From the NCBI GenBank assembly GCA_905236865.1, contig CAJOQX010000173.1:1-53337 (forward strand): a stretch of 53,337 nucleotides of DNA. Direction: 5' to 3'. Shown in pieces: positions 3,307 to 53,258 of the stretch (the stretch's first letter is position 1; each line of letters begins with the position of its first letter). The notes under the pieces are model-generated. The model worked only from the letters and a program-made list of their open reading frames with translations. It had not been told where the DNA came from and did not search any database. Origin of the DNA: Candidatus Rifleibacteriota bacterium. GTDB taxonomy: Bacteria; Muiribacteriota; Ozemobacteria; Ozemobacterales; Ozemobacteraceae. Made by a program: the position numbers and the translations under genes.

Positions 3307-3320
3307 ATTGAATTCCTTCC

Positions 3321-5345: not shown

Positions 5346-5380
5346 GATGTTAGAGATATAGGTATATGTTAAAAATTTAA

Positions 5381-5860: not shown

Positions 5861-5919
5861 TATGATTACCCCTTTCTGGTTGTCAAGTGTCAAAATTGAA
5901 TTAACTATTTTCAGTTTGA

Positions 5920-33372: not shown

Positions 33373-33457
33373 ATTGCCTCCAAGCGAACACTCTTTTTTT
33401 GGAATATCGGCAATTTTCTCTATTTTATTAAGGTATTGATGTAAGACAAAACAATTA

Positions 33458-35469: not shown

Positions 35470-37662
35470 TTACCTGTCTTTACCTTCTCTTTTTAGTATG
35501 TCGAAAAAGACCTTTACTAAAGATGGGTCTAGTTGAGAACCTGCCGCTTTTATCATTTCCTTTTTTACATAGTCAAAAGGAAATGCTTTTCTATAAGGTC
35601 TGTCTGCTATCATTGCATCATAAGTATCTGCAACAGCTAGAATTCTTGCTCCTAATGGAATTTCCGTTCCTTTCAGACCTAAAGGATAACCATGGCCGTC
35701 ATATCTTTCGTGATGATATAGGGTTAATGGAGCAATATCTTTTAATATGGCAACGTGTTCCATTATATTTGCACCGTATTCGGGATGTTTGCGAAGTTCA
35801 GCGATTTCTTCATCTGTTAATTTGCCCTGTTTGGCAAGAATAACATCTTTTACGCCAATTTTGCCTATGTCGTGTAATAAACCAGCATAACGTATTGTTT
35901 CAATTTGATCTTCTGTAAGTCCTATTTCTTTGCTTATTTTTACAGCATATTCCATTACTTTTGTGCTATGTCCATGTGTGTAGGAATCTTTGGTTTCTAT
36001 GGCGGCCGCTAAAGCCATAACCATTGACATATACTGTTCTTTCATATTGGCATAGAGTCTAGCGTTTTCTATGGCTATGCTTGCTTGTGAAGCAAAAGTT
36101 GATAGTAAGTCAATTTCACTTTGAGAAAAGTTTCTAGGTTTGCTTGTATATATTGTAATGACTCCGATAGACTTATTGTGAAGAATTATTGGAACTGCTA
36201 AAAGACCAGCTATTTTTTCTTTCCTCATAATGTTCGCTAGTGGGTCATCTGTTAGTTTCCTTACATCTGTAACTGATATAGGTCTGCGTTTTTCAAAACA
36301 GCTTCCTATAACACTTTCGCCCTTGTTTATAGCTTTTGAAGTCAGAAAGGATTTGGATAAGCCTCTTGATGCTCTTACTTCTAAGGCATTGCTTTCTTTG
36401 TTTAAAAGTCTTAACTCGCAACGAAGAGCGTTTATCATTTCAATAGAAAAACTAACAATAGAATCTAAAACTTCATCTAATACGAGTGTTGATGTAATGG
36501 ATTGTGATATTTCAAACAAAATTGAAACTTCATCTATATGTTTTTCAAGATCTAGATTAATTTTGACATTTTCAATTGAAGTCGCAAGTAAACTAGATAT
36601 TGTTGTTAAGGTTCTGAAATTTTCTCTTGTGAAAGCGTTTTTACGTAAACTCGCTAGTGTTATCAATCCTACATTCTTTTTTTGAAAAACTAAGGGTACA
36701 GTTAAAAAAGATTTTAGTTTTCCGCTAAAGGGTTTTGATGATTCTAGTTTCTGACCAGAAAGTAATAATTGTTGACGTTTTATTTGACGTTCTTTCGATA
36801 TGGCAACCATTTGATAAATCTCATTAATATGGGCTGAAAGAGCATTCAGCTTATGAGGTTGCAACGAATAATTTGATACGTAAAATCTTTTTTCTTCATC
36901 TTCTCTAGAAAACAAACTAACAACACCTATGTCAAATTTTGTTTCTTCCAATAAAAAATCAAAGGTATGACCAATTAAAGATTCAAAAGTCCTGGAAGTT
37001 GAAAGTTTTTTTGCAAGAAAATTAAGTTGTTCAGCTTGTTTGAGCTGTTTTTCCCTATCTTTTAAAAGAGCAGTATGTTCAATTTTTAGAGCGGCAAGAT
37101 TAGCAAAAATAGTAGCTTCTTCCAAATCGTTTACAGAAAACACTTTGTTTTGGTTTATATTAGCTACAACTAACAAACCTAGACATTGAGTTTTGGTTTT
37201 TAAAGGAATAAACAATGCCGATTTGAACGGTGTATTCTGAAAAATAATATCATTTGGATCACCAGTGAATATAAGTCTTTGTTTTAGTTCAAAAGCTCTA
37301 TAAACAGATAAATTCTCTCCAGAAAGATTTGGATTCGCTGTTTGCCCGCAACCAGGACTTGGAATAAAACCAAATTCTTTCAAAGTATGTATTTCGTTAC
37401 GGTGATCTTCGCATTTAATAAAAGATGGTCGTCTTCTACGCTTTCCACAAGCAGTGCAGAATTCTAGCTGATATAATTCACGATTTAAAATCATGATATA
37501 ACTTTCATCAGCTTTAACTGCTTCTTTTACTGATTTGGCAATCATTACCAAATCTTCTTTTAAATCTCTGTTGGCTGAAAGAGCCAAAGAAACTTCAGAT
37601 ATATTTGTTAGTCTGTTAAAATTATCGTTTTGAATATTGCTATTTTTAATGAGTTTTTTCAT
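35470..37662 (-). CDS. multi-GAF sensor HD-GYP phosphodiesterase (cyclic-di-GMP-type)
   Basis: The C-terminus has HGHSTKV...LLHDIGKIGV...HHERYDGHGYPLGL (HD and GYP motifs). Three GAF-like segments lie upstream. It overlaps the GGDEF gene by 17 nt. Confidence 0.88.
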   Translation of the reverse strand: MKKLIKNSNIQNDNFNRLTNISEVSLALSANRDLKEDLVMIAKSVKEAVKADESYIMILNRELYQLEFCTACGKRRRRPSFIKCEDHRNEIHTLKEFGFIPSPGCGQTANPNLSGENLSVYRAFELKQRLIFTGDPNDIIFQNTPFKSALFIPLKTKTQCLGLLVVANINQNKVFSVNDLEEATIFANLAALKIEHTALLKDREKQLKQAEQLNFLAKKLSTSRTFESLIGHTFDFLLEETKFDIGVVSLFSREDEEKRFYVSNYSLQPHKLNALSAHINEIYQMVAISKERQIKRQQLLLSGQKLESSKPFSGKLKSFLTVPLVFQKKNVGLITLASLRKNAFTRENFRTLTTISSLLATSIENVKINLDLEKHIDEVSILFEISQSITSTLVLDEVLDSIVSFSIEMINALRCELRLLNKESNALEVRASRGLSKSFLTSKAINKGESVIGSCFEKRRPISVTDVRKLTDDPLANIMRKEKIAGLLAVPIILHNKSIGVITIYTSKPRNFSQSEIDLLSTFASQASIAIENARLYANMKEQYMSMVMALAAAIETKDSYTHGHSTKVMEYAVKISKEIGLTEDQIETIRYAGLLHDIGKIGVKDVILAKQGKLTDEEIAELRKHPEYGANIMEHVAILKDIAPLTLYHHERYDGHGYPLGLKGTEIPLGARILAVADTYDAMIADRPYRKAFPFDYVKKEMIKAAGSQLDPSLVKVFFDILKREGKDR

Positions 37663-39757
37663 AGATTACTTCTGGTTCGTTGTAACCTTGAACCTGATTT
37701 CTTCCTTCTGCTTTTGCTTTGTATAACGCCTGGTCTGCTGCTTCAATAATATCTGATGTCTTTGTGCAATTAGTTACAGAAATGCAAGAAACTCCTATTG
37801 ATAGAGTGACTTTTAATTTTTTATCTCCTTCTTCAATAAAAGATTCTTCAACTTTGCGTCTAATTCTTTCTGCAAAAGTAATTGCTCCTTCTAGTGAAGT
37901 TTCTGGAAGTATAACACCGAATTCTTCACCACCATATCTTGCTACTGTATCTATTTTATCACGCATTGAAGATTTAAATATAGCGGAAACATGCTTTAAT
38001 ACTTTATCGCCGACAAGATGCCCATAAGTATCGTTAAACTTTTTGAAGAAGTCAATATCTATAATCATTAAAGAAAGTGGCTTTTTATATCTTTGAGATC
38101 TTGTAAATTCTTGAGAAAGCGTTTCTTGGAAAAACCTATGATTATATAATTCGGTAAGAGGATCAGTGAAAGCTAATTTTTCGGTACGTTTGTGAATTAA
38201 AGCATTTTTTATGCTTGTTATAAATATTCCTGTAAATTGTGAAGTTATGTCTAATTCATGCGATGTAAATTCTTCATCGCCTTTTCGTGCTAAATGAATG
38301 AGTCCTTTAACGCTATTTCCAAGAATAATAGGTAAATGTAATTCATGTTTAAATGTAGTTATCTGTTTATTCCCTTGATTTTGAGGATTGAAGAAAGTTG
38401 GAGTTGTTAGATTACTTTTTGTAAGAATTGGTTCACAAGGGTAGTCTTTGAAAAGATTAACAATCTTTTCGGTTAGATTGTTCTGATATTTTAAAGATAT
38501 TGGCTCTGCTGGTTGAACTATCAATTTATATGTGGCATCTAAATCATCATATAACAATATTGAAATAGTAGTAAATGATATGACTTTGTTAAACTGGTTA
38601 AAAGCTTTTTGCAAAATAATGTAAGGATCTAGAGAAGAACCTAAATCTTTACTCATTTCAAAAAAGATTTTGTTTCTTTCTGCACTTTCTCTTAGTATTT
38701 CTTGGTTATTCCATATCGTTTTTAGCATTTTTTCTCTAGTTATAGCACTAGAAATATTATGAGAAATAACTTGTAAAAATCTATAGTGTTTCTTTGCTTG
38801 AGCTTCATCATCTTCAACAAAATCACGACTTACTATCAAAAAATATAGTCCTTCGTCCTCAACAAATAGTGGAATACAATACATTTCACTGCTTTCATTT
38901 CCATCGTCAAACAAAAGTGTAAGAGGAACGTCTTCGTTATTAGCATCATAAACCGATGTTTCAAGCAGTTTATGACGAATTTTTTCTGTTGCTGATTTGA
39001 ACATATTTTCCAGTTGATTTTTATTTAGGCGATGAGAGGCTATTATTTCTAGTTTTTGCTTTATACTATCTTTATATTTTGTATTAATTGTTCTGATAAT
39101 GGCAGAACGTTTCATTCCAAGTTCATTTGCAAGTTTTGTTAAAAATTCTTCTAGTCTTCCTTTAAAATCATTGGCTTCAGAAAGCATATTAGACATTTGA
39201 TATAGAGCGGTAATTTCTTTTCTGTTTGTTTCAATTCTTTCTAAGAGGTTTTCTTTGTCTATAAGACTAGCTATTAAAGTGTTTATCCCGCTTATTTTTG
39301 TTAAATCATCTTCTGTAAACGAAGGTTGGTCAGGGGTGCGATTAAAATTCATGACTCCGATGGTTTTTTTAGTTAATGTTAAGGGAATAGATAAAAATGA
39401 ACCTTCATCGTTTGAACGTGCTGCTTTAAGTTTTGAGCTATTTTTGTTAGTCATTTTTGCACAAACTATAGGAGTTCCTGTTTGGAAAACTCTAGCTGCG
39501 ATAGAATCACTTTTTGAAACCTTTGTTGTTTTGCTTTTTATTTTATCTTTACTTAGTAAAGGGTGGGAGGAAGAAGCATAAAGTTTAAGGCTATCTTCTT
39601 CATTATCATAAACCATAATTGAGCCTGAAGCAGCTTGCATATAGTCAAGAGTTTCAGCTATTATATTTTTAATGAGAAGATGAAGGTCTGTGGATTCGGC
39701 AGCTTTTTCTGCTAATTTTGCATATATATTTTTGTTTTTTGATGTGTTTTTATTCAT
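37646..39757 (-). CDS. GAF-domain diguanylate cyclase (GGDEF, active-site GGEEF)
   Basis: The C-terminus has DPLTELYNHRFF...IDIDFFKKFNDTYGHLVGD...RYGGEEFGVIL. GAF-like N-terminal domains are present. GAGGAAG SD; 8-nt ATGAATAA overlap with the PP2C gene. Confidence 0.9.
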   Translation of the reverse strand: MNKNTSKNKNIYAKLAEKAAESTDLHLLIKNIIAETLDYMQAASGSIMVYDNEEDSLKLYASSSHPLLSKDKIKSKTTKVSKSDSIAARVFQTGTPIVCAKMTNKNSSKLKAARSNDEGSFLSIPLTLTKKTIGVMNFNRTPDQPSFTEDDLTKISGINTLIASLIDKENLLERIETNRKEITALYQMSNMLSEANDFKGRLEEFLTKLANELGMKRSAIIRTINTKYKDSIKQKLEIIASHRLNKNQLENMFKSATEKIRHKLLETSVYDANNEDVPLTLLFDDGNESSEMYCIPLFVEDEGLYFLIVSRDFVEDDEAQAKKHYRFLQVISHNISSAITREKMLKTIWNNQEILRESAERNKIFFEMSKDLGSSLDPYIILQKAFNQFNKVISFTTISILLYDDLDATYKLIVQPAEPISLKYQNNLTEKIVNLFKDYPCEPILTKSNLTTPTFFNPQNQGNKQITTFKHELHLPIILGNSVKGLIHLARKGDEEFTSHELDITSQFTGIFITSIKNALIHKRTEKLAFTDPLTELYNHRFFQETLSQEFTRSQRYKKPLSLMIIDIDFFKKFNDTYGHLVGDKVLKHVSAIFKSSMRDKIDTVARYGGEEFGVILPETSLEGAITFAERIRRKVEESFIEEGDKKLKVTLSIGVSCISVTNCTKTSDIIEAADQALYKAKAEGRNQVQGYNEPEVIYEKTH

Positions 39758-42179
39758 TTTTATTTCTTCCTCTATATTTGATAGACAAAACAGTTAGATC
39801 GTCATGAGCATCTGCTCCTTCACGCCAATCTTGACAAGCAGCAACTAGAGATTTGGTAAGAGTTTTTGCGTTTTCATTCGCTGTTTGGGTCATTATTTGT
39901 TTTATTCTGTCTGTTCCAAACATTTCACCGTTTGGGTTCACTTCTTCGTAAAGACCATCTGTGAACATTACAAAAGAGTCACCTGGATTTAACTTAAACA
40001 TCAAGCTTTCAAAATTCATTAAAGGTGGGTCGAATAATCCTAAAGGCATACCTAATTTTGGTGGAATTTCGGTATTATTGTTTTGAAGTCTGACGAATAG
40101 AGGTCCATGTCCTGCTGAAGCAAATTCACATTCACCAGTAGCTATATTCATAGCAACAAGTTGCAACGTAACAAATTTTCCATCCATTCCTTCCATTTCA
40201 GCAGAAAGATACTTGTTGGCTTTCTTTAAAATATTAATTAAGTTAGCTTCTTCAGGAGCAAGGGTTTTGATAATTGTTTGAGCTATAGCCATAATAATCG
40301 CAGCCGATGAACCTTTTCCTGATACGTCTCCAAGAATTACTAATAATCTGCCATCACATAGGTTAACTGTTTCAAATAGGTCACCACCAACTTCTTTTGC
40401 AGGAATACTTTCACCGTAAATGTCTAATTCTGGAGGTAGACGTTTAAAGTCTTTTTCTGTAGGCATTAAAGACATTTGTATCTCTCTAGCACTTTTGTTT
40501 AACAGCTCTCGTTCTTTTGCTTCGCTAAGATAAGTTACATTGTTTATGCCTGCTGCAACAAGATTAGAAATAGCTTCTAAGAAATTTTTATCGCCTAAAG
40601 TGAATGGTTTTAAGTTATCTTTGTTATTTACATTTATTACACCAGTAACTTTTCTGTTGCTATTACCGATGCCTGTGATTAAAGGAACTGAAAGCATTGA
40701 CCTTGTGTGATAATAAGTGTCATGCTGTTCTGAAAATAATTTTTTTAAATTTTCTTCGCTTTCTTCAGGAAAATTATTCTTTATTTCTTCAATATCACGC
40801 AAGTCTTTTATAAACAAAGTTTTGGCATATTTAACCACTAAACCAGAAATAGAATTTTCTATTAACTGTTTTGTTACATTCGGAACTACGCTACTAGAGT
40901 GACCATGACCTTTTTTGAGTATAAGGTATTTTCGAGTCGGATCTACTTCCATATATGAAATAATATCTACTTTTAGATGATCGGAAATAACGTTTATCAT
41001 TTTGTCTTGCATTATATTTGGATCTGATATGTTTTTTATCAAATCTTCAAATTCAGATATAGATGATATTCTGTTTGCAAAACTATCGGCTGCTTGCAAG
41101 TGAAAACCAATTTTTTCCTTTAACCTATATGAAATAATATCGATTTCATCTTTTGTTAGTTGTGGATTTAGTTCTGATTCAAATATTATTATTGCTCTAG
41201 CATATTGGCTATATGTCGAAGTTATAGGAAATACATATCTTACAGGAACGTCAATTTCTTTTTTGCTGTTATCAAAAGTATTTGTTTTTTTTATGGCATC
41301 TAATATTTCAGGCTTTGAATAAAGCTCTTCAGCAGTTAGTAAATCTGGAATCCATGAGTCAAGACTGACTGTTTTTTCTAGATAATCTTTGTTTCGGTGA
41401 TAAGTATAAATGACTCCTGAATGTTGATTGAAAACTTTGGTTATAAAATCGGCAAGATCTGTTAAAATCTGTTTTGTATCGTTGGGATTATCAAGAAAAC
41501 TTAACCTTGTATCTATTACTTCGACAGTCTTTTTTAGACGGTCATTCAAAGCGTTCCTTCTTGTAAGATTCAAATGACTGAAATATAGACCTAATCTATT
41601 TGCTATCATGGTTACTAGACGCATCATTCCATTATCTTGTTCGTTAAACATTTCCATTGCTTGTTGTTGAGTTGGAATAATGCCTAAATAACCAAAAGTT
41701 ATATCTTCTTCGTTTAAATCTTTTTTGAAATTATTGTTTATCGAACAAGGAAAGACTATCGGACCAAAACTAGACGCTATTGGATCTTCATCTGTATGTA
41801 TCTCTAGTTTATGTTTGGCATCTAAATCAGAATTTTTTGTGTCTATAATATTCATTCGTCGCTCAAGAAGCTCTTGAAGACTACTATCGTAATCGCCATC
41901 AGGACTTCTCTTTGAATAAATTATCTCATTATTATAGCCTGGTGCCGCTTTTTGAATTACTCCTATAGCATTTAATCCAAATTCTTTTTCTAGCATTTTT
42001 AGAAGTGGTAAAAGAACCTTTTCGTCTTCTTCAAACCAATACTTTGATTGGCTTTGTTTAAATGACTGATCATTGTAGCCAATCATCATTTTTTTCGAGT
42101 TTCCACTAGTTGCTAGCAGATTTTGTATGTCAACCAGTAATTCTAATGTTCTAGCAGGTGTTTCAAATTTCTTTGCCAT
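39750..42179 (-). CDS. GAF-domain PP2C/SpoIIE-family serine phosphatase (RsbU-like)
   Basis: The C-terminus has GGDLFE...ILGDVSGKGSSAAIIMA...ASAGHGP...FTDGLYE...DDLTVLSI, typical of PPM/SpoIIE. The long N-terminal region has GAF-like segments. Confidence 0.85.
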   Translation of the reverse strand: MAKKFETPARTLELLVDIQNLLATSGNSKKMMIGYNDQSFKQSQSKYWFEEDEKVLLPLLKMLEKEFGLNAIGVIQKAAPGYNNEIIYSKRSPDGDYDSSLQELLERRMNIIDTKNSDLDAKHKLEIHTDEDPIASSFGPIVFPCSINNNFKKDLNEEDITFGYLGIIPTQQQAMEMFNEQDNGMMRLVTMIANRLGLYFSHLNLTRRNALNDRLKKTVEVIDTRLSFLDNPNDTKQILTDLADFITKVFNQHSGVIYTYHRNKDYLEKTVSLDSWIPDLLTAEELYSKPEILDAIKKTNTFDNSKKEIDVPVRYVFPITSTYSQYARAIIIFESELNPQLTKDEIDIISYRLKEKIGFHLQAADSFANRISSISEFEDLIKNISDPNIMQDKMINVISDHLKVDIISYMEVDPTRKYLILKKGHGHSSSVVPNVTKQLIENSISGLVVKYAKTLFIKDLRDIEEIKNNFPEESEENLKKLFSEQHDTYYHTRSMLSVPLITGIGNSNRKVTGVINVNNKDNLKPFTLGDKNFLEAISNLVAAGINNVTYLSEAKERELLNKSAREIQMSLMPTEKDFKRLPPELDIYGESIPAKEVGGDLFETVNLCDGRLLVILGDVSGKGSSAAIIMAIAQTIIKTLAPEEANLINILKKANKYLSAEMEGMDGKFVTLQLVAMNIATGECEFASAGHGPLFVRLQNNNTEIPPKLGMPLGLFDPPLMNFESLMFKLNPGDSFVMFTDGLYEEVNPNGEMFGTDRIKQIMTQTANENAKTLTKSLVAACQDWREGADAHDDLTVLSIKYRGRNKNE

Positions 42180-43342: not shown

Positions 43343-44341
43343 ATGCTTAAAAAGACTGTTTTGGTTTTATTTGCTGTTCTTATGGGTGGGGTGTTAGCTG
43401 ATGCCCATGAAGAAGAATTTAAACTTATAAACCATCTTAGATATTATAAGACTATGTATGATGCTCATGAAGCTGATGAGCTTATGCGTATTCCTTATGG
43501 CTTAAAACCAGAAAATGTCGGTGGAGAAGACCAAGACTCCAAAAAAGAGTGTCAAGGTGTGCCGATGGCATTCAGACCAACTGAAAATTCAGATGAAGTT
43601 TGGATTCTAGATTCTATCAATAGGGGTTTAAAGTTATTTAAGTCTGGTAAATTACTTAAACATATTAAAATAAAGCAAGAAATGGGTTTTATATCTGATT
43701 TTGCTTTTAATAAGAAAGGCAAAATAGCACTGTTAAATCAAAATGTAGGTAACGTTTATATAATTAATGATAATGGAAATCTAATTAAAAATATTTCGGG
43801 TTTTCAGTGTGCCAACTCTCTAGAATTTGTTTCTGAAAATACTTTGCTAATAGATAGTCCTTTGTCTCATGGAAAGGTAAAACTATCTATTGATGGGGAT
43901 TTACTAGGGGTATATGAATCAGATCAGACTCTGAGTGTTTATTCGTCAGAAAAAGGAGTTTGGGGGCTAGATTGCTATGGTGGTCAGGTTGCAAAACTTT
44001 TTGTTAGACCTAATAATGGAAAAACGATTAAAGTTATAGTTGAATTTCCATATAAAGATTATGAAGATGTAGAATATAAGGGTGGTAATATCTACGGTTT
44101 TGACAAAGATGGCAATATATACTTTGGCTTAGTTGCTTGTAATCCAGAAGGCATTATTTATCGAGATAGAATTTACAAGTGCAATCAAAATGGTGAAGTA
44201 TTAAAAGAAATTGATGTTTTGTCTAAACCTTTTATGTCTCCTAATCTTCCGCGTCATCGAGTGGCTTGTCCAGATGGAAGAGTATTAACTTTCCATTCTT
44301 TTGAAGATAATTACTATTTGTATACTTATTCTATGAAATAA
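43343..44341 (+). CDS. secreted hypothetical protein (beta-rich, possibly propeller-like)
   Basis: Signal peptide VLVLFAVLMGGVLADA. The remainder is rich in short beta-strand-like G/N/Y/V segments with no motif I can name. Followed by a strong terminator. Confidence 0.5.
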   Translation: MLKKTVLVLFAVLMGGVLADAHEEEFKLINHLRYYKTMYDAHEADELMRIPYGLKPENVGGEDQDSKKECQGVPMAFRPTENSDEVWILDSINRGLKLFKSGKLLKHIKIKQEMGFISDFAFNKKGKIALLNQNVGNVYIINDNGNLIKNISGFQCANSLEFVSENTLLIDSPLSHGKVKLSIDGDLLGVYESDQTLSVYSSEKGVWGLDCYGGQVAKLFVRPNNGKTIKVIVEFPYKDYEDVEYKGGNIYGFDKDGNIYFGLVACNPEGIIYRDRIYKCNQNGEVLKEIDVLSKPFMSPNLPRHRVACPDGRVLTFHSFEDNYYLYTYSMK

Positions 44342-44354
44342 GCTTAAAGCAAAC

Positions 44355-44393
44355 AAAAACCCCACTTGTTTTTATAAACAAGTGGGGTTTTTT
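44355..44393. terminator. bidirectional intrinsic terminator between the convergent 43343 gene and the giant surface-protein gene
   Basis: A 12-bp GC-containing stem (ccccacttgttt 44360..44371 pairs with aaacaagtgggg 44376..44387) with a 4-nt loop, flanked by A5 upstream and T6 downstream. Confidence 0.8.
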
Positions 44394-44532: not shown

Positions 44533-47500
44533 TTATGGTGTTCCAAATTGAACAACAAATGGTAAAGCTTGACTACCGTTTAAATCATTCCACAGTCCAG
44601 TTCCTTTGTAAAACTCTGCATAATTTTCACCACTAGAATTATTTGGTTCTCCACTATTCCAGTTTGTATACATACCACTAGCAGTAGAAAAACCTCCAGA
44701 GCTTCCATTTCCTGTTCCAGCCAAAGTGCCGTCATTGTATCGCCAAGTTCCTTCACTTGCAGCATCGTTCAAACCAATCCAAAAGTCAGAATTAGCATTG
44801 CCAGCAAGATAACTCATTACCTTGTTTTGCATATCAGCACTTTTAATCATTACTAATTCACCACCCATAGCTATAGCGTAGTTTCTTGCATCAGTCCAAC
44901 TCATTGCCGAGTTTACAACTACCAATCTACAGCCACCATAAGTAACAACTGAACCACCAACGACAGAATTATTTAACCAATTAGCTTTATATGATTTATT
45001 TTCTGTAGATCCTTTAGTTATGCTTACTGAAGTTTGAGCTTTAGTTCCATTACTGCCTGTCCAACCTACAAAAGTAAAACCACTTTTAGTTGGATTAACC
45101 AAAGTAAAAGTATTTGTAGTAACATAGTAATTGTCAACATTTGTTGCAGATCCACCATCATAATTATAAGTTATAGTATATTTAATCAAAGAAGCATTTG
45201 CTGTCATAGTAGTATTAATTGCTGGCATTGTGAAAGTTGAAGCGGTTGTGTAACCACTCCATGCAGGGGTTTGATAGCCTGCCAAACAAGTAGCTGTAAC
45301 TGTCACGCTTTTGCCGAATTTGTAAGTGCCATCGCCAGAAACAGTAGAAATACCTGTTCCCTTGTTTACTGTTAGCGTGTAGCTGTTCCTAGAATAGTAG
45401 TAGTTTATTTCATTTGTTGAATTATAACTTATATTTATGGTCGTTGCTGTAGGAGAAGTAAAACCCGTGTAAGTTTTGACTGATGGAGCCTGGTCACTCT
45501 TGACTCTTCTGCTCAGATTTTCTGTTTCATACAGTGTATAGTTATTATTGTCGATGTTCATCTGGTAGTGGCGGACTGTAAGGGTATTGTTTTCAACTGT
45601 GTTGAATACTTTTTGTGGAAAAACTTCTATGTCGATAGCCTCTATTGCGGAAAGGTCGGCCATGGATATGGTATAAGTCCTGCCTACATCTAGCTCGCCG
45701 ACGAATGAAAGACCGAGGCTTGTACCACTCCATGTTTTTGACATTCCACTTTCTGCCAGATCGGAAACTAGCAGACAAGATGAAATAATAGCTTTATCGG
45801 AGGTGTTGAAGTCATAAGTAGAAGTGACTGTAAATGTTGGGTCCAGCATATAAAGCCCTTCCGACTCGTTGAAATAGCTTCCTGCGTTTGTTGCTAGCGT
45901 GAGGGTGACTCTTTCCATCGTGGTTATTGTTCTTGCAGGGAAAGGAGTCACAAGAATGCCGTCCATTCCTGGATCGGTCATAGAAACGGTATAAGTTGTG
46001 CCCTGTGTCAGATATTCGGTGAAACCTATCGCTACATTGTTTGTGCCATGGTTCTTCGTGACCTTGCCGCTGTCTATGACAGATACAGAAATTGCGTCGA
46101 ATATCTGCTGCCAGTCGCTCGTTCTGGTGAAAGCGTAGGTAGACGTTGCGGTAAACGAGGTATTGAGCCTGTATCTTGTGTGGGACGGCGATGCGTCGAA
46201 CAGGTCATTGCCATTGTGGTCTATGCTGAAAGTTATGACTGGCATTGTCTTTATGCCATGGTTCGCAAACTTGTTGAAGCTTATAGCTTCTATGGCTGTC
46301 AAATCACCAAGCTTTATGACATAGCTCGTATCTGGTTCCAGATAGCCGTCGAACGAAAGCCTTATTATGTTTCCGTCCCACGCCTTTATCACCTTGCTTT
46401 CTGATACTCCATCCACTGACAGGGCGTTAAGGATTACTGCCTTGTCAGTATCGTTGAAAACATAGTCAGGATTTATAGTGAACGATGGATTGAGTCTGTA
46501 TAGCTGGTCAGGTTCATCGAAAACCCTGCCTGTATCTGAAGCAAGAGCGATGTTTATTGTCCTCATGGTGCGGAAAGTGAAATCTGCAAAAGGTTTTGCC
46601 ACAATGCCCCTTATGCCTGTTGTGGTATTGAGAGAAACCGTATAGTCAACATTCGGGTTCAGGTAGTGGTTGACCGCCAGTCTGATACTGTCGCCGACCC
46701 ATGTCATGACCAGATCGTCATGGTCAACACCAGATATATTTACCGCCTTTTCTACTAAGGCCCTGTCTGTCGTATTAAAAGCGACACTTGGTGTCACTAC
46801 GAAAGTGGGGTTGAGTCTGTAGAATTGCTCTGGCTCGTCAAATACACTCCCTGTAGTAGAGGCAAGAGTGACTACGACTTCATCCATTGTGTTGAAAGGA
46901 AAATCTCTGAAAGGTTTTACGACAACACCAGAAATACCAGTATCAGCCGAAAGACTGAGTGAAAAACTTGTTTTCGGAGTAAGATAGTCCTTCTGAGTGA
47001 TTCTTAGACTGTTTCCGACCCAGTCTCTGTTAATGGCATCATGGGCGACACCCTTGATAGATACAGCGTTTGCAAAGAGTTCTTTGTCGCTATCGTTAAA
47101 AGTGACGCTTGGGGTCACGACAAATACAGGGTCGAGTCGGTAGAAACCCTTTCCATCGTCAAAAATACTGCCTTCTTCTATTTCATAAGTTGCGGTTACT
47201 CTGTCCATCGTATTGAAAGACATTCTCCCGAAACCGACAACAACCATTCCGCTTACATCTATAGAATTTGCCATATTTATGCTGTAGCCATGACCAGGCT
47301 CCAAATAGTTTATGAAACCTATAATTAGCTTTTCATATTCATCGTCTTTCCGCCATTCCATAGTGGTTTCGCTTTTAGTAACACCAGATACAGATATGGA
47401 GGTTACAATATTGTCCTTGTCCTTCTCCGTCAGAGGAAGATTAGGACTAATCGTGAAAGTCGGGTTGAGCCTGTAAAGACCGTTGCCATCGTCAAATACA

Positions 47501-50223
47501 CTGCCATCATTTTCTTTTATATTGATAACAAGAGCACCAATAGTGGAAAAAGATACTTTTTCAAAGGGTTTGACTTTTACACCGTCTATTTTAATGCTAC
47601 TGTCCATTGTTAAATCATAATCTCTATTTATGTCTAGTTTGCCAAGGAAACTGATTTTGAGGGTATTATCGTTCCATTCTTTCTTTATTCGTTCGTCCTC
47701 TATGCCTGAAAGGTGTATTGAGTTGGCTATAATATTTCTGTCCTCTTTGCCGAAAGTAAAACTTGGTTTTACATAGAAAGCAGGATTGAGTCTGTATATA
47801 TTTTCTGCTTCGTTGAAAATACAGGATGGATCTGTTGTGACATTGAAAGTCACAGCTCCCTTAGTGGTGAACTCAAAACTGTCGAAAGCTTTTATCAACG
47901 CTTCGTCTACTCCTGTGTCAGATGACATTTTAACATTATAAGTTTCGCCGTCTTTCAAGGTTTCTTTGAAACTCAGTGTGAAACTGTCGCTTGCAGTCCA
48001 GTTTACCACAAGCTGACTACTGTCAACTCCTGTCACTGAAACAGATTTGGCAATTTTCTCCCTGTCAGACTCCTTGAAAGAATAACTGGTCTTTACTGTG
48101 AAAGTAGGGTTAAGCTTGTAAAGACCTCTCTCTTTGTCTATGACATTGCCATGATTGGAATCGAGGGTTACGTCTATCTCGTCCATGGTTGTAAAGGAGA
48201 AATCTTTAAAAACAGAGATATCCACACCTTCTATTCCTGTGTCACTAGCCATGGTGACAGTATATTTTGTTGTCGCATCAAGTTTGTTTTTGAAGCTTAT
48301 ATTCAAAACATCGTTTTCCCAGGTTTTTGTCAGCGACGAGCTTGCTATATTTGAAACGGAAACGGCATCTGCAATCTTTTTCTTGTCGTTGTCGCTGAAA
48401 GAGAAACTGGGGGTTACAGAGAACGTGGGATTTATTCTAAAAAGTTTGTCTGATTCGTCAAAAATATTGCTTTCTGGAGAGTTCAGCTCCACCTTTATAC
48501 CGTCCATGGTAGTGAAATCCAGATCCTCGAAACATTTGATGCTGTAGCCTTCCACATCTGACGGCTCTTTCATGGACAGAACGTAGTTCGTGGAACTGTC
48601 CAGACCACCTATAATACCAACGGAAAGTCGAGAGTTATCCCATTTTTTTTCAAGCCTATTGTTGGAAACCGTGGAAATGGAAATGGAGTCGGCTATTTTC
48701 TTTTTATCCTCGTCATCCAGCATATAGCCTAAGTCAATTGTGAATGCGGGATCTATTCGGTAAAGACCATTTTGACTGTCGAAGATATTCTTATCGGCAT
48801 CAGACAAAGTAATAGTCACATCGCCCATTGTAGTAAATTTATGGTCATCAAAACCGATGACGGTGATGTTTTCAATCCCTGTGTCTGATGCCATCGTGAC
48901 AATATAAGTGGTGTCGGTCGCAAGATAGCTGTCGAAGCTTAGTGTAAGCTCATCTTCACTCCATATTTTGGCGAGCTTCTGCCCTGAAAGGTTGCTGACA
49001 GAGATTGAATTTGCTATCTTGTCGCGGTCTGCTTTGTCGAATTTGTGGCTGGAAGTCACGAAGAATCGTGGGTTGAGCTTTAAGATATTCCCATTCTCAT
49101 CGGCAAAGCTGGATTTTTCAGGAGCTATACTGAAAAGCACATCGCTATAGGAGTCGAATGTCACATACTGTGAATAGACAAGAGGCTGCGAAAGACCGCT
49201 TTCTTTTCGGCTGAAAAACTCTATCAGGAATCTCTTCGGGAAATCCTCTTCCGCCATTCCTTTGATATTTAACGTGAAAGAGTATTCTGCCTCTGAATAT
49301 GTCTTGGCGAAGCTTATAAGATTCGTGATGTCAAACGAGTGGGAGTATCTGCCATCCTCTATGCAGCTGTCATTGAAGTTGGACTGTCTAACCAGCTTCC
49401 CGTTCACTTTCACCCTGTCAGGTATTTCGCTGTTGTTACGGTATGTGAGTCTGACAACCAGATCTGAATCGTCGAATGATTCCATGTTGACCCCTTTCAG
49501 AACGCTTTTTACAAAAAGGTCGTCGCAATACTGGCTTTTAGAATTCATCAGCACAGCCGAGGTTGAGGTCGCCACAATTCCATCTATCACCGTTTCGGGT
49601 TTCAAGGCGTCAGGCTTCATTATCGCCAGGGCTAACTGCACCCCTGCACGATAAAGCTCGAACTTGCATTCTTTTGGGGCTGGCTGTTCAGCCGCTCTGG
49701 ATGGAACCGTATTCGCTATCTTTGTTATCTGGTCAGTGACTCTTGAAAAACGCCACGGCTCACTTTCGGAAGTTTTCACCGCCACATAGCAGAGCCCAGT
49801 GTCGCTGACAGGATTTGGAATGGTAACTGTGAAAGGTTTTTCCAGGGTTGTCACCTGGACATCTTCGATGAGAGGGTTATCTGACTTGTAGACGGCTTTC
49901 ACTGTGTATACATAGATATAGTCGGAGGGAAGCCCTATTTTTTCATCGCCTGTATTTATACGCTTCTCTTCTAAGACGGTGACAACGACGCCAGAACGCA
50001 TGGTCGCGTCATTGTTGGTCTCTATTTTAGCCCCTGACGGAAAAGTTATCGTGGGCATTCTGCCGTCCTCGTTTACCACGGCTTCCCTGTAAAATACTTC
50101 TAGATTGGCAGAAGGAATGTTGCCAAGGTCATTCATGCCGTCACTGCCTTTGCGGTTGCAACAGCCGTATATGAAAATCATAATAAGAATTATGATTGTT
50201 ATTGTAGAAAGATATTTTTTCAT
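44533..50223 (-). CDS. giant (1,896 aa) surface/lipoprotein-like adhesin: signal peptide, ~340-aa N-terminal region, 11 Ig-like repeats, InlB-type B-repeats, C-terminal C-type lectin domain
   Basis: Single uninterrupted ORF. N-terminus MKKYLSTITIIILIMIFIYGCC is a signal sequence with a possible lipobox Cys. See the repeat and lectin sub-features. A candidate promoter lies upstream and a terminator downstream. Confidence 0.9.
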   Translation of the reverse strand: MKKYLSTITIIILIMIFIYGCCNRKGSDGMNDLGNIPSANLEVFYREAVVNEDGRMPTITFPSGAKIETNNDATMRSGVVVTVLEEKRINTGDEKIGLPSDYIYVYTVKAVYKSDNPLIEDVQVTTLEKPFTVTIPNPVSDTGLCYVAVKTSESEPWRFSRVTDQITKIANTVPSRAAEQPAPKECKFELYRAGVQLALAIMKPDALKPETVIDGIVATSTSAVLMNSKSQYCDDLFVKSVLKGVNMESFDDSDLVVRLTYRNNSEIPDRVKVNGKLVRQSNFNDSCIEDGRYSHSFDITNLISFAKTYSEAEYSFTLNIKGMAEEDFPKRFLIEFFSRKESGLSQPLVYSQYVTFDSYSDVLFSIAPEKSSFADENGNILKLNPRFFVTSSHKFDKADRDKIANSISVSNLSGQKLAKIWSEDELTLSFDSYLATDTTYIVTMASDTGIENITVIGFDDHKFTTMGDVTITLSDADKNIFDSQNGLYRIDPAFTIDLGYMLDDEDKKKIADSISISTVSNNRLEKKWDNSRLSVGIIGGLDSSTNYVLSMKEPSDVEGYSIKCFEDLDFTTMDGIKVELNSPESNIFDESDKLFRINPTFSVTPSFSFSDNDKKKIADAVSVSNIASSSLTKTWENDVLNISFKNKLDATTKYTVTMASDTGIEGVDISVFKDFSFTTMDEIDVTLDSNHGNVIDKERGLYKLNPTFTVKTSYSFKESDREKIAKSVSVTGVDSSQLVVNWTASDSFTLSFKETLKDGETYNVKMSSDTGVDEALIKAFDSFEFTTKGAVTFNVTTDPSCIFNEAENIYRLNPAFYVKPSFTFGKEDRNIIANSIHLSGIEDERIKKEWNDNTLKISFLGKLDINRDYDLTMDSSIKIDGVKVKPFEKVSFSTIGALVINIKENDGSVFDDGNGLYRLNPTFTISPNLPLTEKDKDNIVTSISVSGVTKSETTMEWRKDDEYEKLIIGFINYLEPGHGYSINMANSIDVSGMVVVGFGRMSFNTMDRVTATYEIEEGSIFDDGKGFYRLDPVFVVTPSVTFNDSDKELFANAVSIKGVAHDAINRDWVGNSLRITQKDYLTPKTSFSLSLSADTGISGVVVKPFRDFPFNTMDEVVVTLASTTGSVFDEPEQFYRLNPTFVVTPSVAFNTTDRALVEKAVNISGVDHDDLVMTWVGDSIRLAVNHYLNPNVDYTVSLNTTTGIRGIVAKPFADFTFRTMRTINIALASDTGRVFDEPDQLYRLNPSFTINPDYVFNDTDKAVILNALSVDGVSESKVIKAWDGNIIRLSFDGYLEPDTSYVIKLGDLTAIEAISFNKFANHGIKTMPVITFSIDHNGNDLFDASPSHTRYRLNTSFTATSTYAFTRTSDWQQIFDAISVSVIDSGKVTKNHGTNNVAIGFTEYLTQGTTYTVSMTDPGMDGILVTPFPARTITTMERVTLTLATNAGSYFNESEGLYMLDPTFTVTSTYDFNTSDKAIISSCLLVSDLAESGMSKTWSGTSLGLSFVGELDVGRTYTISMADLSAIEAIDIEVFPQKVFNTVENNTLTVRHYQMNIDNNNYTLYETENLSRRVKSDQAPSVKTYTGFTSPTATTINISYNSTNEINYYYSRNSYTLTVNKGTGISTVSGDGTYKFGKSVTVTATCLAGYQTPAWSGYTTASTFTMPAINTTMTANASLIKYTITYNYDGGSATNVDNYYVTTNTFTLVNPTKSGFTFVGWTGSNGTKAQTSVSITKGSTENKSYKANWLNNSVVGGSVVTYGGCRLVVVNSAMSWTDARNYAIAMGGELVMIKSADMQNKVMSYLAGNANSDFWIGLNDAASEGTWRYNDGTLAGTGNGSSGGFSTASGMYTNWNSGEPNNSSGENYAEFYKGTGLWNDLNGSQALPFVVQFGTP
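44536..44940 (-). other. C-terminal C-type lectin-like domain of the giant protein with EPN and WND motifs
   Basis: CRLVVVNSAMSWTDARNYAIAMGGELVMIKSADMQNKVMSYL...FWIGLNDAASEGTWRYNDG...NWNSGEPNNSSGENYAEF...GLWNDL. EPN is encoded at 44649..44641 (GAA CCA AAT) and WND at 44592..44584 (TGG AAT GAT), both verified on the DNA. Confidence 0.75.
44977..45594 (-). other. InlB B-repeat / Listeria-Bacteroides (Flg_new)-type repeats within the giant protein (aa ~1544-1749)
   Basis: TLTVRHYQMNIDNNNYTLYETENL...VKTYTGFTSP...INYYYSRNSYTLTV, then YTLTVNKGTGISTVSG..., then YTITYNYDGGSATNVDNYYVTTNTFTLVNPTKSGFTFVGWTG...KSYKANW. The Y-T-(I/L/V)-T-(F/Y/V) ... G(Y/F)TFxGW pattern is characteristic. Confidence 0.7.
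45595..49143 (-). repeat. 11 tandem, divergent ~107-aa repeats (aa 361-1543), each ending in F-(T/N/S)-T-(M/K/I/V); pattern resembles SbsA/Big_5-type bacterial Ig-like domains
   Basis: Recurring pattern in the translation: (F/I)(D/N)xxxxx(Y/F)(R/K)LNP(T/A)F(T/V)(V/I)xPSxxFxxxD(K/R)xxIAxx(I/V)SVSG...W....L.(L/I)SF...L...T.Y.V.M..DTGI.G(V)....F.DF.FTTM. Repeat 1 ends at the ATG codon 48826..48828, checked on the DNA. The fold assignment is by pattern only. Confidence 0.75.
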
Positions 50224-50256: not shown

Positions 50257-50284
50257 ATTGTACACAAAATTCTTTTATTTGCAA
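50257..50284 (-). promoter_or_regulatory. candidate sigma70-type promoter for the giant gene (TTGCAA-16 nt-TACAAT on the minus strand)
   Basis: -35 TTGCAA at 50284..50279, 16-nt spacer, -10 TACAAT at 50262..50257, about 34 nt upstream of the ATG at 50223. It overlaps copy 4 of TTGTGTACA. Confidence 0.4.
50259..50267 (-). promoter_or_regulatory. copy 4 of recurrent 9-mer TTGTGTACA (minus strand), overlapping the -10 of the giant-gene promoter
   Basis: Plus strand reads tgtacacaa at 50259..50267, the reverse complement of TTGTGTACA. Confidence 0.4.
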
Positions 50285-50330
50285 ATATTTCAAAATAAAT
50301 GAGTATTAGAACAAAAGCATTGGGCTATTT

Positions 50331-53258
50331 TTATTGTTTCTTTTTTATTTGATAAATGAACGATATTGCGAGCATTATAACGGCAACACCTATTAACACA
50401 ATAATTCGCAATAGCGAGGTTAATTGCCAAATATCAAAGAGAAAAAGTTTTATTACAGAGAGACTGATTAATCCAATTCCAACTTTCAAAAGTTTGTCTA
50501 GCTTTTTGTTTGCCAAAAACATACACACAGCACCGCATATAGCCCAGGCAATAGTATAAGTAGCAGCTTCACTGACTTTTCCACAAAAATTGAAATTAAG
50601 ACTTTCGCCATTTGAAAAATAATTGGCTATTTCAATATTTACTAGGGCAAAAAGTAATATTCCACCTAGTGAATTTAATATTGTGGGGTATTTTTTTTGT
50701 GAATCTTTTCGCCAAAAATAAGCTGAAGCAAACATTGCTGCTGAACAGGGCAAATATGTATATAAATACCAGTTGAAAAATAAATTATTTTCTTTATGAT
50801 AGGTAATTATAAATGGATTGAGCAATAATCGAATTCCGACAATCCACATTAATATCGTTCCAAAATTTTGAAGTAAATTAATCGGTAATTTGTGCCATAA
50901 TAATATTAAACTAAAACCTTCTAGGGCATAAGCGATGGTTTTCCATTCGTTCGTAAAATTAAGAGCTATGCTCATTGTTAAAAAAGCAATTGGAACAGTT
51001 ATTAAAGTAGTAATTCGTAGTTTTTGTATGCCTTCGTCTAATTTGCTCCATTTAATAATTAAATAATCGTAAATTGCAAAGAAAGCAAAGAGTAAAAATG
51101 GTATATAACCTGATGTTTGTCTATATTTTATATCATCGTAAAAGATAGCAATAATTAATGACCCTACAAGCAAATTAAATACAGATACCGAAACCCAAGT
51201 TTCCTTGCTTTTTTCAAAAGTTTTTTGCCATACGAAAGGTATGCAAGCTATTAGGATATTCCATATTACAAGCCATATAAATATTTCTTCGCCTCTTTTA
51301 TCGTCAATTGCTTGGTTAGTCATAATGCATAAGGGAATTATGAGTGATAGAGTGTTTACTGAATAAATTACTCCGTTTTTTTGTTTAATGGAAAAAAAGA
51401 TATACAAGATTTGATAGATTAAAGCAAAAGCAAGTATTGAGTGAAGTTTTTCTATCCCTATTAAAGATGTTAAGGTAACGCAGATTGCTGTAAATATTAT
51501 CGAAGTTAGTTGTGGATAAAGCTTTTCTCTGATTCCACTTAGCGTTCCAAAAAATAATGTAAAAAGCGTATTTAAACCTATTAAATACCATTGATTTTTA
51601 AAAGGAACTATAAAACCGAAACATAAAAATGCTAATATTATTGTGTTAGATAATAATAAATCGCTTTTTTTTATGAAAGCTATTATTCCAAAGAATAATG
51701 TGAAGAAAGTTGCAAAACCTGCAAGATAAGGCAGATGAGTTGTATCAAGTATAGCATTAGGTTGACAGAAATAAAGGGCTATAAAACCTATTCCTGTGAG
51801 AAACATTGAGGCTATTTGCCAGTAAATGTTTTGGTTTTTAATAGATATAACTCCAAAGAATAGTGAAATAAATATAATATATATAAAAATGGCTATTAAA
51901 GATTGAGTTGTAGCAATTAGAACGAAGCCTAATAATGTAAAAAAGATACTGCAAATAAAGGTTTCATTGTCATTTTTCCAAAAAGCTAATAAAGCGAATA
52001 ATATAGCAAAAAAACCAGCATAAGTGATTAGATAGGGTAATTTTTCCAAACTACTTTCTAAACTAAATATGAAATTGTGAAATCCTAGAATTATCAAAGC
52101 AATTGTTGTAAAGGCAAAAACTGCTTTCATTAACCATTTCTGGTCTTTGTAAATGTAAACAACCGTATAAAATATCGATAAAAATGCAGGGAATATTGCT
52201 AATTGGAGTAAATTGCTATTTTTTATTACAGATAAGAAGCAGAGGAATGTAAAAGCAAGCCCTGTAAATAGCTGGTTCTGCCAGTTACGTTTTATAGCGG
52301 CGGCTACTGCGGCAACGTTAATAATACCTATATATGCTAATAAAAACCAAATCTGTGGTGTCTCTGTATGGAATAAAAAAGGAGTTAGAAAACCAATAAT
52401 TTGAGCTAGAACGCCTATGTATTGTGCATTTTTCCATACTGCTGTTGCGAAAGAAGCTAATGCTATAATGCTTAGAAGTATGAAAGTTACTGTTGGGGAA
52501 GTCATTTGATAAAAATAATAGGCTGCGAACCAGACCGAATAGCATGTACATAAGCCACAGGCACATAAAGTGTCCGAAGTAGTTTTTACATTTGGTTTAC
52601 GTAAAAGAGCACCTGTAGTCCACAATGCTATACCTGCTATAGTGCCTATTGCCACTCTTAAAGTTGCAGAAATTAGTTCTTTTTCTAATGCATATTTTAT
52701 TAGGAAAATTACTCCTAATAATAAGATGAAACCACCTATCCAAGAGAAAAGTTGAACGAAAGAAATAGGTTCTTTAGGCTTTTGTTGTGCTAAATGTTCT
52801 TTGTCGGATTGTTGTAAATCTTTTATTTGTTGCTGTTCTATACTTCCTTTTATATCTTCTTGATTGGTAGGAACTTCATTATTAATAGCTTCGCTTTGAG
52901 GGGATTGAATATCGTTAAATGATGACTGAACTGTTGTATTATTTGTCTCAATTTTTTGTTGAACTTCAATTTGCTTTTTAAGCTTCTGTTGAATTTCTTC
53001 CCCTGTTTTTGATTCAATATATTGAGAAATATCATTTGTTGAAGTATGTTTTTCTATATTTATTTCTGGAACAGATTCTGTAGTTGATTTTTCAGGTCTG
53101 TGTTTTAGTTTATATTCTATTGATTCGATAAGAGTTTTGTAATAATCAATCTCTTTTTTTAGTTCTTTTTTTGTTTCTTCTAAATCAAAAATAATTTTGT
53201 TTTGTCTATCTTGTAAGAAAACCAGCCACAGGAATACAATAAAAATAATTAGTAACAT
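50331..53258 (-). CDS. DUF2339-like large polytopic membrane protein with N-terminal TM segment plus coiled-coil/Gln-rich region
   Basis: 975 aa. N-terminus is LLIIFIVFLWLVFL followed by a heptad-like segment EETKKELKKEIDYYKTLIESIEYKL. The remainder is more than 20 hydrophobic segments rich in F/I/L/A, the architecture typical of DUF2339. Confidence 0.7.
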   Translation of the reverse strand: MLLIIFIVFLWLVFLQDRQNKIIFDLEETKKELKKEIDYYKTLIESIEYKLKHRPEKSTTESVPEINIEKHTSTNDISQYIESKTGEEIQQKLKKQIEVQQKIETNNTTVQSSFNDIQSPQSEAINNEVPTNQEDIKGSIEQQQIKDLQQSDKEHLAQQKPKEPISFVQLFSWIGGFILLLGVIFLIKYALEKELISATLRVAIGTIAGIALWTTGALLRKPNVKTTSDTLCACGLCTCYSVWFAAYYFYQMTSPTVTFILLSIIALASFATAVWKNAQYIGVLAQIIGFLTPFLFHTETPQIWFLLAYIGIINVAAVAAAIKRNWQNQLFTGLAFTFLCFLSVIKNSNLLQLAIFPAFLSIFYTVVYIYKDQKWLMKAVFAFTTIALIILGFHNFIFSLESSLEKLPYLITYAGFFAILFALLAFWKNDNETFICSIFFTLLGFVLIATTQSLIAIFIYIIFISLFFGVISIKNQNIYWQIASMFLTGIGFIALYFCQPNAILDTTHLPYLAGFATFFTLFFGIIAFIKKSDLLLSNTIILAFLCFGFIVPFKNQWYLIGLNTLFTLFFGTLSGIREKLYPQLTSIIFTAICVTLTSLIGIEKLHSILAFALIYQILYIFFSIKQKNGVIYSVNTLSLIIPLCIMTNQAIDDKRGEEIFIWLVIWNILIACIPFVWQKTFEKSKETWVSVSVFNLLVGSLIIAIFYDDIKYRQTSGYIPFLLFAFFAIYDYLIIKWSKLDEGIQKLRITTLITVPIAFLTMSIALNFTNEWKTIAYALEGFSLILLWHKLPINLLQNFGTILMWIVGIRLLLNPFIITYHKENNLFFNWYLYTYLPCSAAMFASAYFWRKDSQKKYPTILNSLGGILLFALVNIEIANYFSNGESLNFNFCGKVSEAATYTIAWAICGAVCMFLANKKLDKLLKVGIGLISLSVIKLFLFDIWQLTSLLRIIVLIGVAVIMLAISFIYQIKKKQ

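Follow-up and report, generated by a model that had tools for sequence, protein, structure and literature searches.

A predicted lipoprotein with an Ig-like stalk and a C-terminal C-type lectin domain, and signs of a swapped-in tip

Closest described systems and overall architecture

C-type lectin domains with the canonical EPN and WND motifs have, to our knowledge, been studied almost entirely in animals. Here we describe a domain of this kind at the C-terminus of a protein of 1,896 amino acids (aa), encoded at positions 44533..50223 on the (-) strand of a 53,337-nucleotide stretch of DNA, which is referred to in its full length as the window. The product is probably a lipid-anchored, fibrillar-adhesin-like protein that presents a Ca2+-dependent lectin of the mannose/N-acetylglucosamine (GlcNAc)/fucose type. 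The closest described architectures are found among the fibrillar adhesins surveyed by Monzon, Lafita and Bateman (2021), whose list of stalk domains (Table S1) includes Big_5, Flg_new and Flg_new_2 (PMC8286594). As in those proteins, a long single polypeptide combines tandem copies of listed stalk domains with a distinct terminal binding domain (PMC8286594). However, Tables S2 and S3 of that survey list neither Lectin_C nor a lipobox, and only Intimin_C stands there for the C_Lectin clan (PMC8286594). The anchor is likewise of a different kind, an N-terminal lipobox in place of LPXTG, SLH, LysM, GW or the type 9 secretion system (T9SS), and it is accompanied by an undescribed base module of 338 aa. 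Since the stalk is of a listed kind while the adhesive domain and the anchor are not, the protein is termed fibrillar-adhesin-like on the basis of its architecture, and is not assigned to a listed type.

A second described system is TvpA of Treponema denticola, a surface lipoprotein with a C-terminal binding domain of the C-lectin fold, together with LdtA of Legionella, a protein cited in the paper on TvpA (PMC4891356). Common to these proteins and the present one are a lipoprotein signal at the N-terminus and a ligand-binding domain of C-type-lectin fold at the C-terminus, and the FGE-sulfatase-type tip of TvpA and LdtA is carried by 19 of 38 members of the family described below. Unlike them, the present protein has a canonical Lectin_C domain with a Ca2+/sugar site and an 11-domain stalk, and the window showed no diversity-generating retroelement (DGR). 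The giant RTX adhesins of type 1 secretion systems (T1SS), such as LapA, SiiE and MpIBP, also use an Ig-like extender to project sugar-binding modules, but with the opposite polarity, the lipid anchor here being N-terminal. RTX repeats, a T1SS signal or a retention module gave no Pfam match at E<1, and the C-terminus is taken up by the lectin domain. Similarly, no leucine-rich repeat (LRR) of the internalin N-terminal type was matched, and the model of the N-terminal region is an all-beta sandwich.

The open reading frame (ORF) at 44533..50223 (-) is intact. A preliminary description of this DNA had proposed a single 5.7-kb ORF in which a long Ig-like stalk carries a C-terminal lectin domain, and this architecture was recovered: Pfam returns all four proposed domains (Lectin_C, Flg_new_2, Flg_new and Big_5, to which NCBIfam adds TIGR02543 List_Bact_rpt), and the domain scans give the order lipobox signal peptide, N-terminal base module, 11 repeats, B-repeat region and Lectin_C. 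Each part is of a known kind; the interest lies in the way they are combined, in a base module that is undescribed and in signs that the tip was swapped in. The features of the gene are as follows, with the basis of each call in brackets.

44533..50223, (-): whole gene of a fibrillar-adhesin-like lipoprotein, 1,896 aa, ATG start, TAA stop (ORF listing, translation, domain calls)
50161..50223, (-): signal peptide with lipobox I-Y-G-C, aa 1-21, Cys21 being the predicted lipidated mature N-terminus (sequence pattern)
49147..50160, (-): N-terminal base module, aa 22-359, 338 aa, all-beta (profile searches, AlphaFold2 model)
45595..49146, (-): stalk of 11 divergent Big_5-type Ig-like repeats, aa 360-1543 (repeat alignment, matches to a hidden Markov model (HMM) of the array itself, Big_5 scores)
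44968..45594, (-): B-repeat region, aa 1544-1752 (Pfam and NCBIfam scans)
aa 1544-1614, (-): linker within the B-repeat region, an 81-aa linker without a Pfam match
45196-45381, (-): Flg_new_2, aa 1615-1676 (Pfam)
44977-45180, (-): Flg_new (Pfam aa 1682-1734)/TIGR02543, aa 1682-1749 (Pfam, NCBIfam)
45204..45489, (-): change-point in codon composition, best codon 1640, about 45303 (likelihood change-point)
44536..44967, (-): C-terminal C-type lectin domain, aa 1753-1896, Pfam Lectin_C 1773-1890 (Pfam, PDB sequence matches)
44752..44781, (-): WIGL motif, aa 1815-1818, with D1820 and E1824 (alignment to animal lectin domains)
44584..44649, (-): predicted principal Ca2+/sugar site, E1859-P-N1861-N1862 ... 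E1866 ... W1878-N1879-D1880 (alignment to Endo180 lectin domains)
50257..50285, (-): promoter-like site TTTGCA-17-TACAAT (a consensus scan only, which is not evidence of function)
44355..44392, (.): bidirectional intrinsic-terminator-like hairpin with a 17-bp stem, between convergent genes (sequence scan)

Having a promoter-like site and a terminator hairpin of its own, the adhesin-like gene looks like a separate transcription unit; the 107-nt intergenic spacer upstream of it, in which the promoter-like site is located, has a GC content of 18.7%.

The C-terminal lectin domain and its prokaryotic relatives

The assignment of the C-terminal domain is carried by Lectin_C (PF00059), which matches the whole protein at E 5.9e-13 (49.9 bits) and the isolated domain at E 8.4e-15 (55.9 bits; threshold 22.6). 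Among PDB sequences, the last 144 aa match the lectin domains of DEC-205, Endo180/MRC2, DC-SIGN and the mannose receptor at E 3e-15 to 1e-7, those of the first three at E 3e-15 to 1e-11. All five ligands of the principal site (E1859, N1861, E1866, N1879 and D1880) stand in register with the EPN, E and WND of Endo180/MRC2: in the Endo180 alignments the EPNN and WND motifs coincide with their counterparts, and the Glu of GENY falls on that of LEDC. The same ligands are invariant in the alignment of the bacterial clade. In mannose-binding protein A (MBP-A) and DC-SIGN these five residues ligate the principal Ca2+, which also binds sugar hydroxyls, and the EPN motif is the mark of a preference for mannose, GlcNAc, glucose or fucose. 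D1820, E1824 and N1862 fall on positions that we take, from what is established for MBP-A and DC-SIGN, to be those of auxiliary Ca2+ ligands, and are assigned as putative ligands of an auxiliary site. Thus, the domain resembles CTLD2 (the second CTLD, short for C-type lectin-like domain) of Endo180/MRC2, DC-SIGN and mannose-binding protein both in its Lectin_C membership and in the register of WIGL, EPN, Glu and WND, solved structures being matched at E about 1e-11 to 1e-13, and the earlier proposal of a C-terminal C-type lectin domain bearing WIGL, EPN and WND is borne out.

A search with the single sequence returned a few cysteine-poor relatives with the pattern SGEPNN...(E/D)(N/D)Y...WND, the closest being 38-57% identical. 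One small bacterial lectin-domain gene adjoins the gene of an SLH protein, a clearly bacterial context. A profile of five sequences, applied at E<=1e-6, then delineated a cysteine-poor prokaryotic Lectin_C clade of 2,263 cluster representatives, from whose 122 closest matches the details given here are taken. The pattern EPN...E(N/D)...WND is present in 99 of these 122. Consequently, an intact EPN/WND site is normal within this prokaryotic clade. The preliminary description had pointed out that many bacterial domains of the C-type-lectin fold lack it, but the site is not exceptional for bacteria. A Tyr at the position of an animal disulfide Cys (ENY) is found in 92 of the 122, and in 92/101 of the closest relatives carrying the site. 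As this Cys-to-Tyr change recurs in these relatives, the domain is placed in the prokaryotic cysteine-poor subclade and is not counted among the animal-type CTLDs. The unusual feature is therefore not the intact site itself, but the placement of Lectin_C on a stalked lipoprotein of 1,896 aa. The closest relatives, which include small "C-type lectin domain-containing proteins" of NCBI annotation in metagenome-assembled genomes (MAGs), belong to the same clade, whereas all 122 measure only 87-250 aa, and among the small lectin-domain proteins only that of contig L061 shows a similar junction from Flg_new to lectin. Literature searches for a characterised bacterial Lectin_C domain returned animal lectin papers only. 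One member of the cysteine-poor clade, P0245, is annotated as coming from a MAG of Candidatus Hodarchaeota, an Asgard archaeon.

Signal peptide, base module, stalk and family

The N-terminus, MKKYLSTITIIILIMIFIYGC, shows an n-region, an h-region and a lipobox, as had been claimed in the preliminary description: MKK is followed by a 14-residue hydrophobic stretch and then by I-Y-G-C21, in agreement with the criteria for a lipoprotein signal (pattern evidence only). Y19, G20, C21 and C22 are unchanged across 4 relatives, and a lipobox of the form [LVIF]-x-[GAS]-C is found behind a hydrophobic stretch in 111/150 representatives of the base-module family, most commonly as LYGC or IYGC. Cys21 is thus a candidate for lipidation, and the 1,896-aa protein may be exposed at the surface.

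Residues 22-359 have no match in Pfam or NCBIfam, and a profile of 33 sequences finds no relative among PDB sequences. The alignment of the module likewise gave no match in a profile search of contigs from 185,579 species representatives. Conversely, an exhaustive HMMER profile search of 1.84 billion cluster representatives retrieved 150 representatives at E<1e-3, of which 62 lie at E<1e-30. The matches nearly always begin at residue ~25-50, the proteins themselves measuring 900-2,300 aa, and the module directly follows the signal peptide across at least 150 clusters. An AlphaFold2 model built from the 33-sequence alignment is all-beta, with a predicted local distance difference test (pLDDT) of 86.8 and a predicted template-modelling score (pTM) of 0.84; an earlier run with 3 sequences, which reached a pLDDT of 51, was discarded. 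The strand pattern, together with a dip in confidence at model residues ~140-160, suggests that the module consists of two beta-sandwich lobes. Foldseek matches of the model in the PDB (Sgo0707, SdrE, Bbp, UafA and integrin legs) are of a generic multi-beta-sandwich kind and say little about the module because their TM-score is about 0.2, and a search of a viral structure library gave nothing specific. The prediction and structural search that had been proposed for this region in the preliminary description thus yielded a confident all-beta model with only loose matches. By these searches the base module is a real, undescribed domain family, not unique to this protein. The earlier suggestion that the N-terminal region may be undescribed therefore holds as far as Pfam, NCBIfam and PDB sequences are concerned, while the region is not peculiar to this protein, since it heads at least 150 clusters.

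The stalk was delimited by cutting the protein at a recurring F-x-T-M motif, which gave exactly 11 units of 107-111 aa with a mean pairwise identity of 32%, in keeping with the 11 divergent repeats of ~107 aa noted earlier. Each of the 11 units scores 109-139 bits against an HMM built from the array. Tandem Repeats Finder detected no tandem repeat at the DNA level in the array, which is consequently regarded as old and not recently amplified. Big_5 (PF13205) matches the whole protein with 33 bits, whereas single repeats reach 15-19.6 bits, under the threshold of 23.6 bits. A consensus drawn from 39 repeats in four proteins of the family, in turn, scores 29.8 bits against the same threshold (E 1e-6; profile positions 23-105 of 105), and in relatives Big_5 is found down to E 9.5e-36. 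The preliminary description had considered the repeat family possibly undescribed, on the understanding that membership of an annotated Pfam family would remove the novelty; with the consensus above the Big_5 threshold this novelty is gone, and by these scores the repeats are classed as a divergent Big_5 subfamily and not as a new family. A PDB profile search with the repeats gave chance-level matches only (E>0.2). The number of 11 repeats recurs in all five stalk-bearing proteins (this protein, P0002, P0003, the second gene of contig L001, and P0035), and between this protein and its stalk-bearing relatives the repeats show no positional orthology. The repeat count thus appears to be constrained, the individual units not. 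Two of the L001 paralogues match each other position by position in their last four repeats, a pattern suggestive of gene conversion at the 3' end.

The Listeria-Bacteroides-type B-repeats proposed between stalk and tip were detected by three models, all above threshold: in the isolated region, Flg_new_2 scores 44.8 bits (threshold 23.6) and Flg_new 30.0 (threshold 27), and TIGR02543 List_Bact_rpt of NCBIfam scores 42.8 bits (threshold 20.95).

The first homologues found, P0002 and P0003, are 30% identical over about 80% of the query, share the lipobox, base module and repeats, and end in GLUG modules. In a Pfam scan of 38 full-length members, Flg_new was found in 30, Flg_new_2 in 29, FGE-sulfatase in 19, Big_5 in 16, GLUG in 10 and Lectin_C in 0, and an HMM of the lectin domain matched none of the 150 family representatives. 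At least 26/150 representatives end in a ...RGGS...CRSA.R...GFRLALV tail, typical of C-lectin folds of the FGE type. A B-repeat followed by a tip is the usual order. The family is, as judged from these domain assignments, modular, its members having the lipobox and base module in common but differing in their stalks and in their exchangeable C-terminal tips, and the Lectin_C tip is unique to this protein within it. Family genes occur in tandem, with three giant GLUG-tipped paralogues in L001 (1-16798) and two FGE-sulfatase-tipped ones in L060 (186-8833), and family contigs often end at or near these genes (e.g. L058-L060). The sample codes of related contigs (WILK20-1, XIEF21-1, GLEN20-2) resemble those of ruminant or gut metagenome studies.

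Compositional break, alternative readings and genomic setting

The gene is a compositional mosaic. The G+C content at third codon positions (GC3) is 0.16-0.25 in the other window genes tested, and within the adhesin-like gene it falls from 0.52 (base module) through 0.45 (repeats) and 0.28 (B-repeat region) to 0.24 (lectin domain). The likelihood change-point at codon 1640 lies inside the Flg_new_2 repeat, with a support interval of codons 1578-1673 and a likelihood ratio of 34.3, compared with a permutation maximum of 8.5. GC3 is 0.464 before this codon and 0.199 after it, the host value being 0.200 +/- 0.029 in 236-codon windows. Likewise, the relative synonymous codon usage (RSCU) of the 3' part correlates with that of host genes at 0.78, and that of the 5' part at 0.44. 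The closest relative of the 5' part, on contig L056, is 81% identical at the aa level and, over a stretch of 1,193 nt that begins 14 nt before the ATG, 77% identical at the nt level. It is located in a non-syntenic low-GC neighbourhood, where the upstream gene has a GC3 of 0.19 and the adhesin-like relative one of 0.57. An independent contig of 29.5% GC, L061, encodes Flg_new, then a lectin domain, then a stop. We infer from these patterns that base and stalk, of foreign composition, came together with a resident cassette of B-repeat and lectin domain through recombination inside the B-repeats. Both contigs have peculiarities of their own. At 2360-3135 of L056 the relative stops after about 393 codons and is followed by DNA of 58% GC, with a phage-tail-fibre-like N-terminus (GGTGATSAADARTNLG) on the other strand, an extension to be explained by an insertion or else by chimeric assembly. 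At 1-534 of L061 the lectin domain, the closest relative of the one described here, is split from the upstream Flg_new by a frame shift, indicating a pseudogene or an assembly error.

The mechanism that we favour would start with export by the Sec pathway and cleavage by signal peptidase II before Cys21, whose acylation would hold the protein in the membrane, as the sequence pattern implies. The 338-aa base module, a probable tandem beta-sandwich, would be located beside the membrane, and the 11 Big_5 domains with the linker and two B-repeats could form a rigid extender of roughly 50-70 nm, as estimated from typical Ig-domain lengths. At the far end, the EPN, Glu and WND of the lectin domain would hold a Ca2+ ion ligating the equatorial 3-/4-OH groups of mannose, GlcNAc, glucose or fucose-type sugars. 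With the ion held by these residues, binding is predicted to be Ca2+-dependent and sensitive to ethylenediaminetetraacetic acid (EDTA). At the scale of the family, the lipid-anchored base module and a stalk fixed at 11 domains may constitute a constant chassis that moves between low-GC genomes and captures resident tips (Ca2+ lectin, FGE-sulfatase, GLUG) by B-repeat recombination, a proposal that we put forward tentatively.

Several observations weigh against this account. In contrast to the animal mannose-type lectin domains, the present domain, in its bacterial lipoprotein context, carries Tyr (ENY), Gly and Val where the animal domains have their conserved disulfide cysteines, so that both canonical disulfides are absent, and a 13-aa Gly/Ser-rich insertion (about aa 1836-1848) directly precedes the EPN loop. 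The closest relatives are without this insertion, which could alter or occlude the sugar site. Because the 122 closest relatives are small proteins, function cannot be transferred from a stalked, characterised homologue. The Tyr at lipobox position -2 is atypical, though recurrent in the family, and the lipoprotein status is a matter of pattern. Both exposure at the surface and a host glycan as the ligand are assumed. Finally, the recombination account is built on composition, and no donor was found.

The break could also have arisen during assembly, by a metagenomic mis-join that linked, at shared B-repeat sequence, a stalk gene of high GC3 to a genome of low GC. The sharpness of the break inside a repeat-type domain, the family contigs that end near such genes and the continuation of L056 into unrelated 58% GC DNA would all fit such an origin. 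We nevertheless consider it very improbable: the high-GC3 segment is internal, with host-like sequence on both sides and a frame that is open across the break, the order of B-repeat and tip is the family norm, and the independently assembled L056 reproduces the junction, a low-GC flank giving way to a high-GC3 gene 14 nt ahead of the ATG. Even less credence is given to the lectin tip as the hypervariable target of a DGR, although FGE-sulfatase domains, with which 19/38 relatives end, are the usual DGR target fold (PMC4891356) and the lectin loop is Asn-rich. The tip is of the Lectin_C and not the FGE-sulfatase type, no reverse transcriptase is present among the annotated ORFs of the 53-kb window, and no template-repeat copy of the 3' end of the gene occurs anywhere in it; a DGR variable protein was on the latter two grounds rejected for this contig.

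The identity of the ligand and the orientation of the protein allow for further readings. The tip might bind bacterial glycans, of its own cell or of neighbours, or dietary or environmental polysaccharide, and so serve auto-aggregation, biofilm cohesion or substrate tethering in place of the adhesion to host or prey suggested in the preliminary description. No host is identified by any of the data, the relatives of the protein are known from metagenome assemblies only, a small bacterial lectin-domain gene has an SLH cell-wall protein gene as its neighbour, and a cyclic di-GMP (c-di-GMP) signalling operon with GGDEF and HD-GYP domains lies 2-9 kb from the adhesin-like gene. In other bacteria, c-di-GMP systems control biofilm adhesins, and a regulatory link between the two loci here would be speculation. 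This reading is rather unlikely in our estimate, but mannose, GlcNAc and fucose-type ligands are present on hosts, microbes and plant material alike, so that it cannot be told apart from binding to host glycans. It is improbable, in turn, that the protein is oriented the other way round, with the lectin domain anchored to the wall polysaccharide of its own cell in the manner of GW or SLH domains and the N-terminal module as the functional head. Conservation in the family is highest in that module, its best fold matches are the ligand-binding regions of the Gram-positive adhesins Sgo0707, SdrE, Bbp and UafA, and Listeria InlB has an N-terminal head with an internal B-repeat. These fold matches, at a TM-score of about 0.2, have little weight, however. 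The lipobox Cys directly ahead of the module in 111/150 members ties this end to the membrane, and the C-terminal domain varies between FGE-sulfatase, GLUG and Lectin_C, as would be expected of a specificity tip and not of an anchor. A lipid-anchored stalk with a distal Ca2+-dependent lectin is retained as the preferred reading.

The window is chromosomal, as seen from ffh, rimM, trmD, lepB, phoH, era, dxs, mutL, miaA and cinA; no tRNA or Rfam family was found in it, its Shine-Dalgarno usage is mixed, and its Dxs matches proteins of scattered phyla at no more than 34-51% identity. The c-di-GMP genes form part of an apparent operon of three overlapping GAF-domain ORFs at 35470-42179 (-), about 2 kb from the adhesin-like gene:

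35470-37662, (-): HD-GYP phosphodiesterase (GAF-rich operon)
37646-39757, (-): GGDEF diguanylate cyclase (GAF-rich operon)
39750-42179, (-): SpoIIE/PP2C phosphatase (GAF-rich operon)

The gene directly upstream of the adhesin-like gene, 50331-53258 (-), has host-like codon usage (GC3 0.22), and its product is a polytopic membrane protein of 975 aa (DUF2339/DUF2157). On the other side, the ORF 43343-44341 (+; 332 aa) is convergent with the adhesin-like gene, and the terminator hairpin is common to both; neither this ORF nor that at 31450-33477 (-; 675 aa) has a Pfam match. Two tandem, slightly overlapping GalT-like (galactose-1-phosphate uridylyltransferase/DUF4921) paralogues, with a 101-nt stretch that is 76% identical, are located at 2305-4316 (-). 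A 3-nt-periodic low-complexity repeat of 28 overlapping copies, at 5361-5837, falls in a 170-aa ORF, 5381-5893 (-), which is apparently Asp/Glu-rich.

The base module is a candidate new domain family heading at least 150 clusters of giant lipoproteins, and its model might serve as the seed of a Pfam entry. From the protein and its clade it could be learned how the lectin fold works without disulfides, and whether the EPN rule for mannose-type specificity holds outside animals. The intragenic break in composition, together with the varied tips of the family, provides a testable case of adhesin specificity evolving by tip swapping; if the proposed chassis is real, it would let bacteria gain new adhesion specificities by exchanging cassettes, in parallel to mutagenesis by DGRs.

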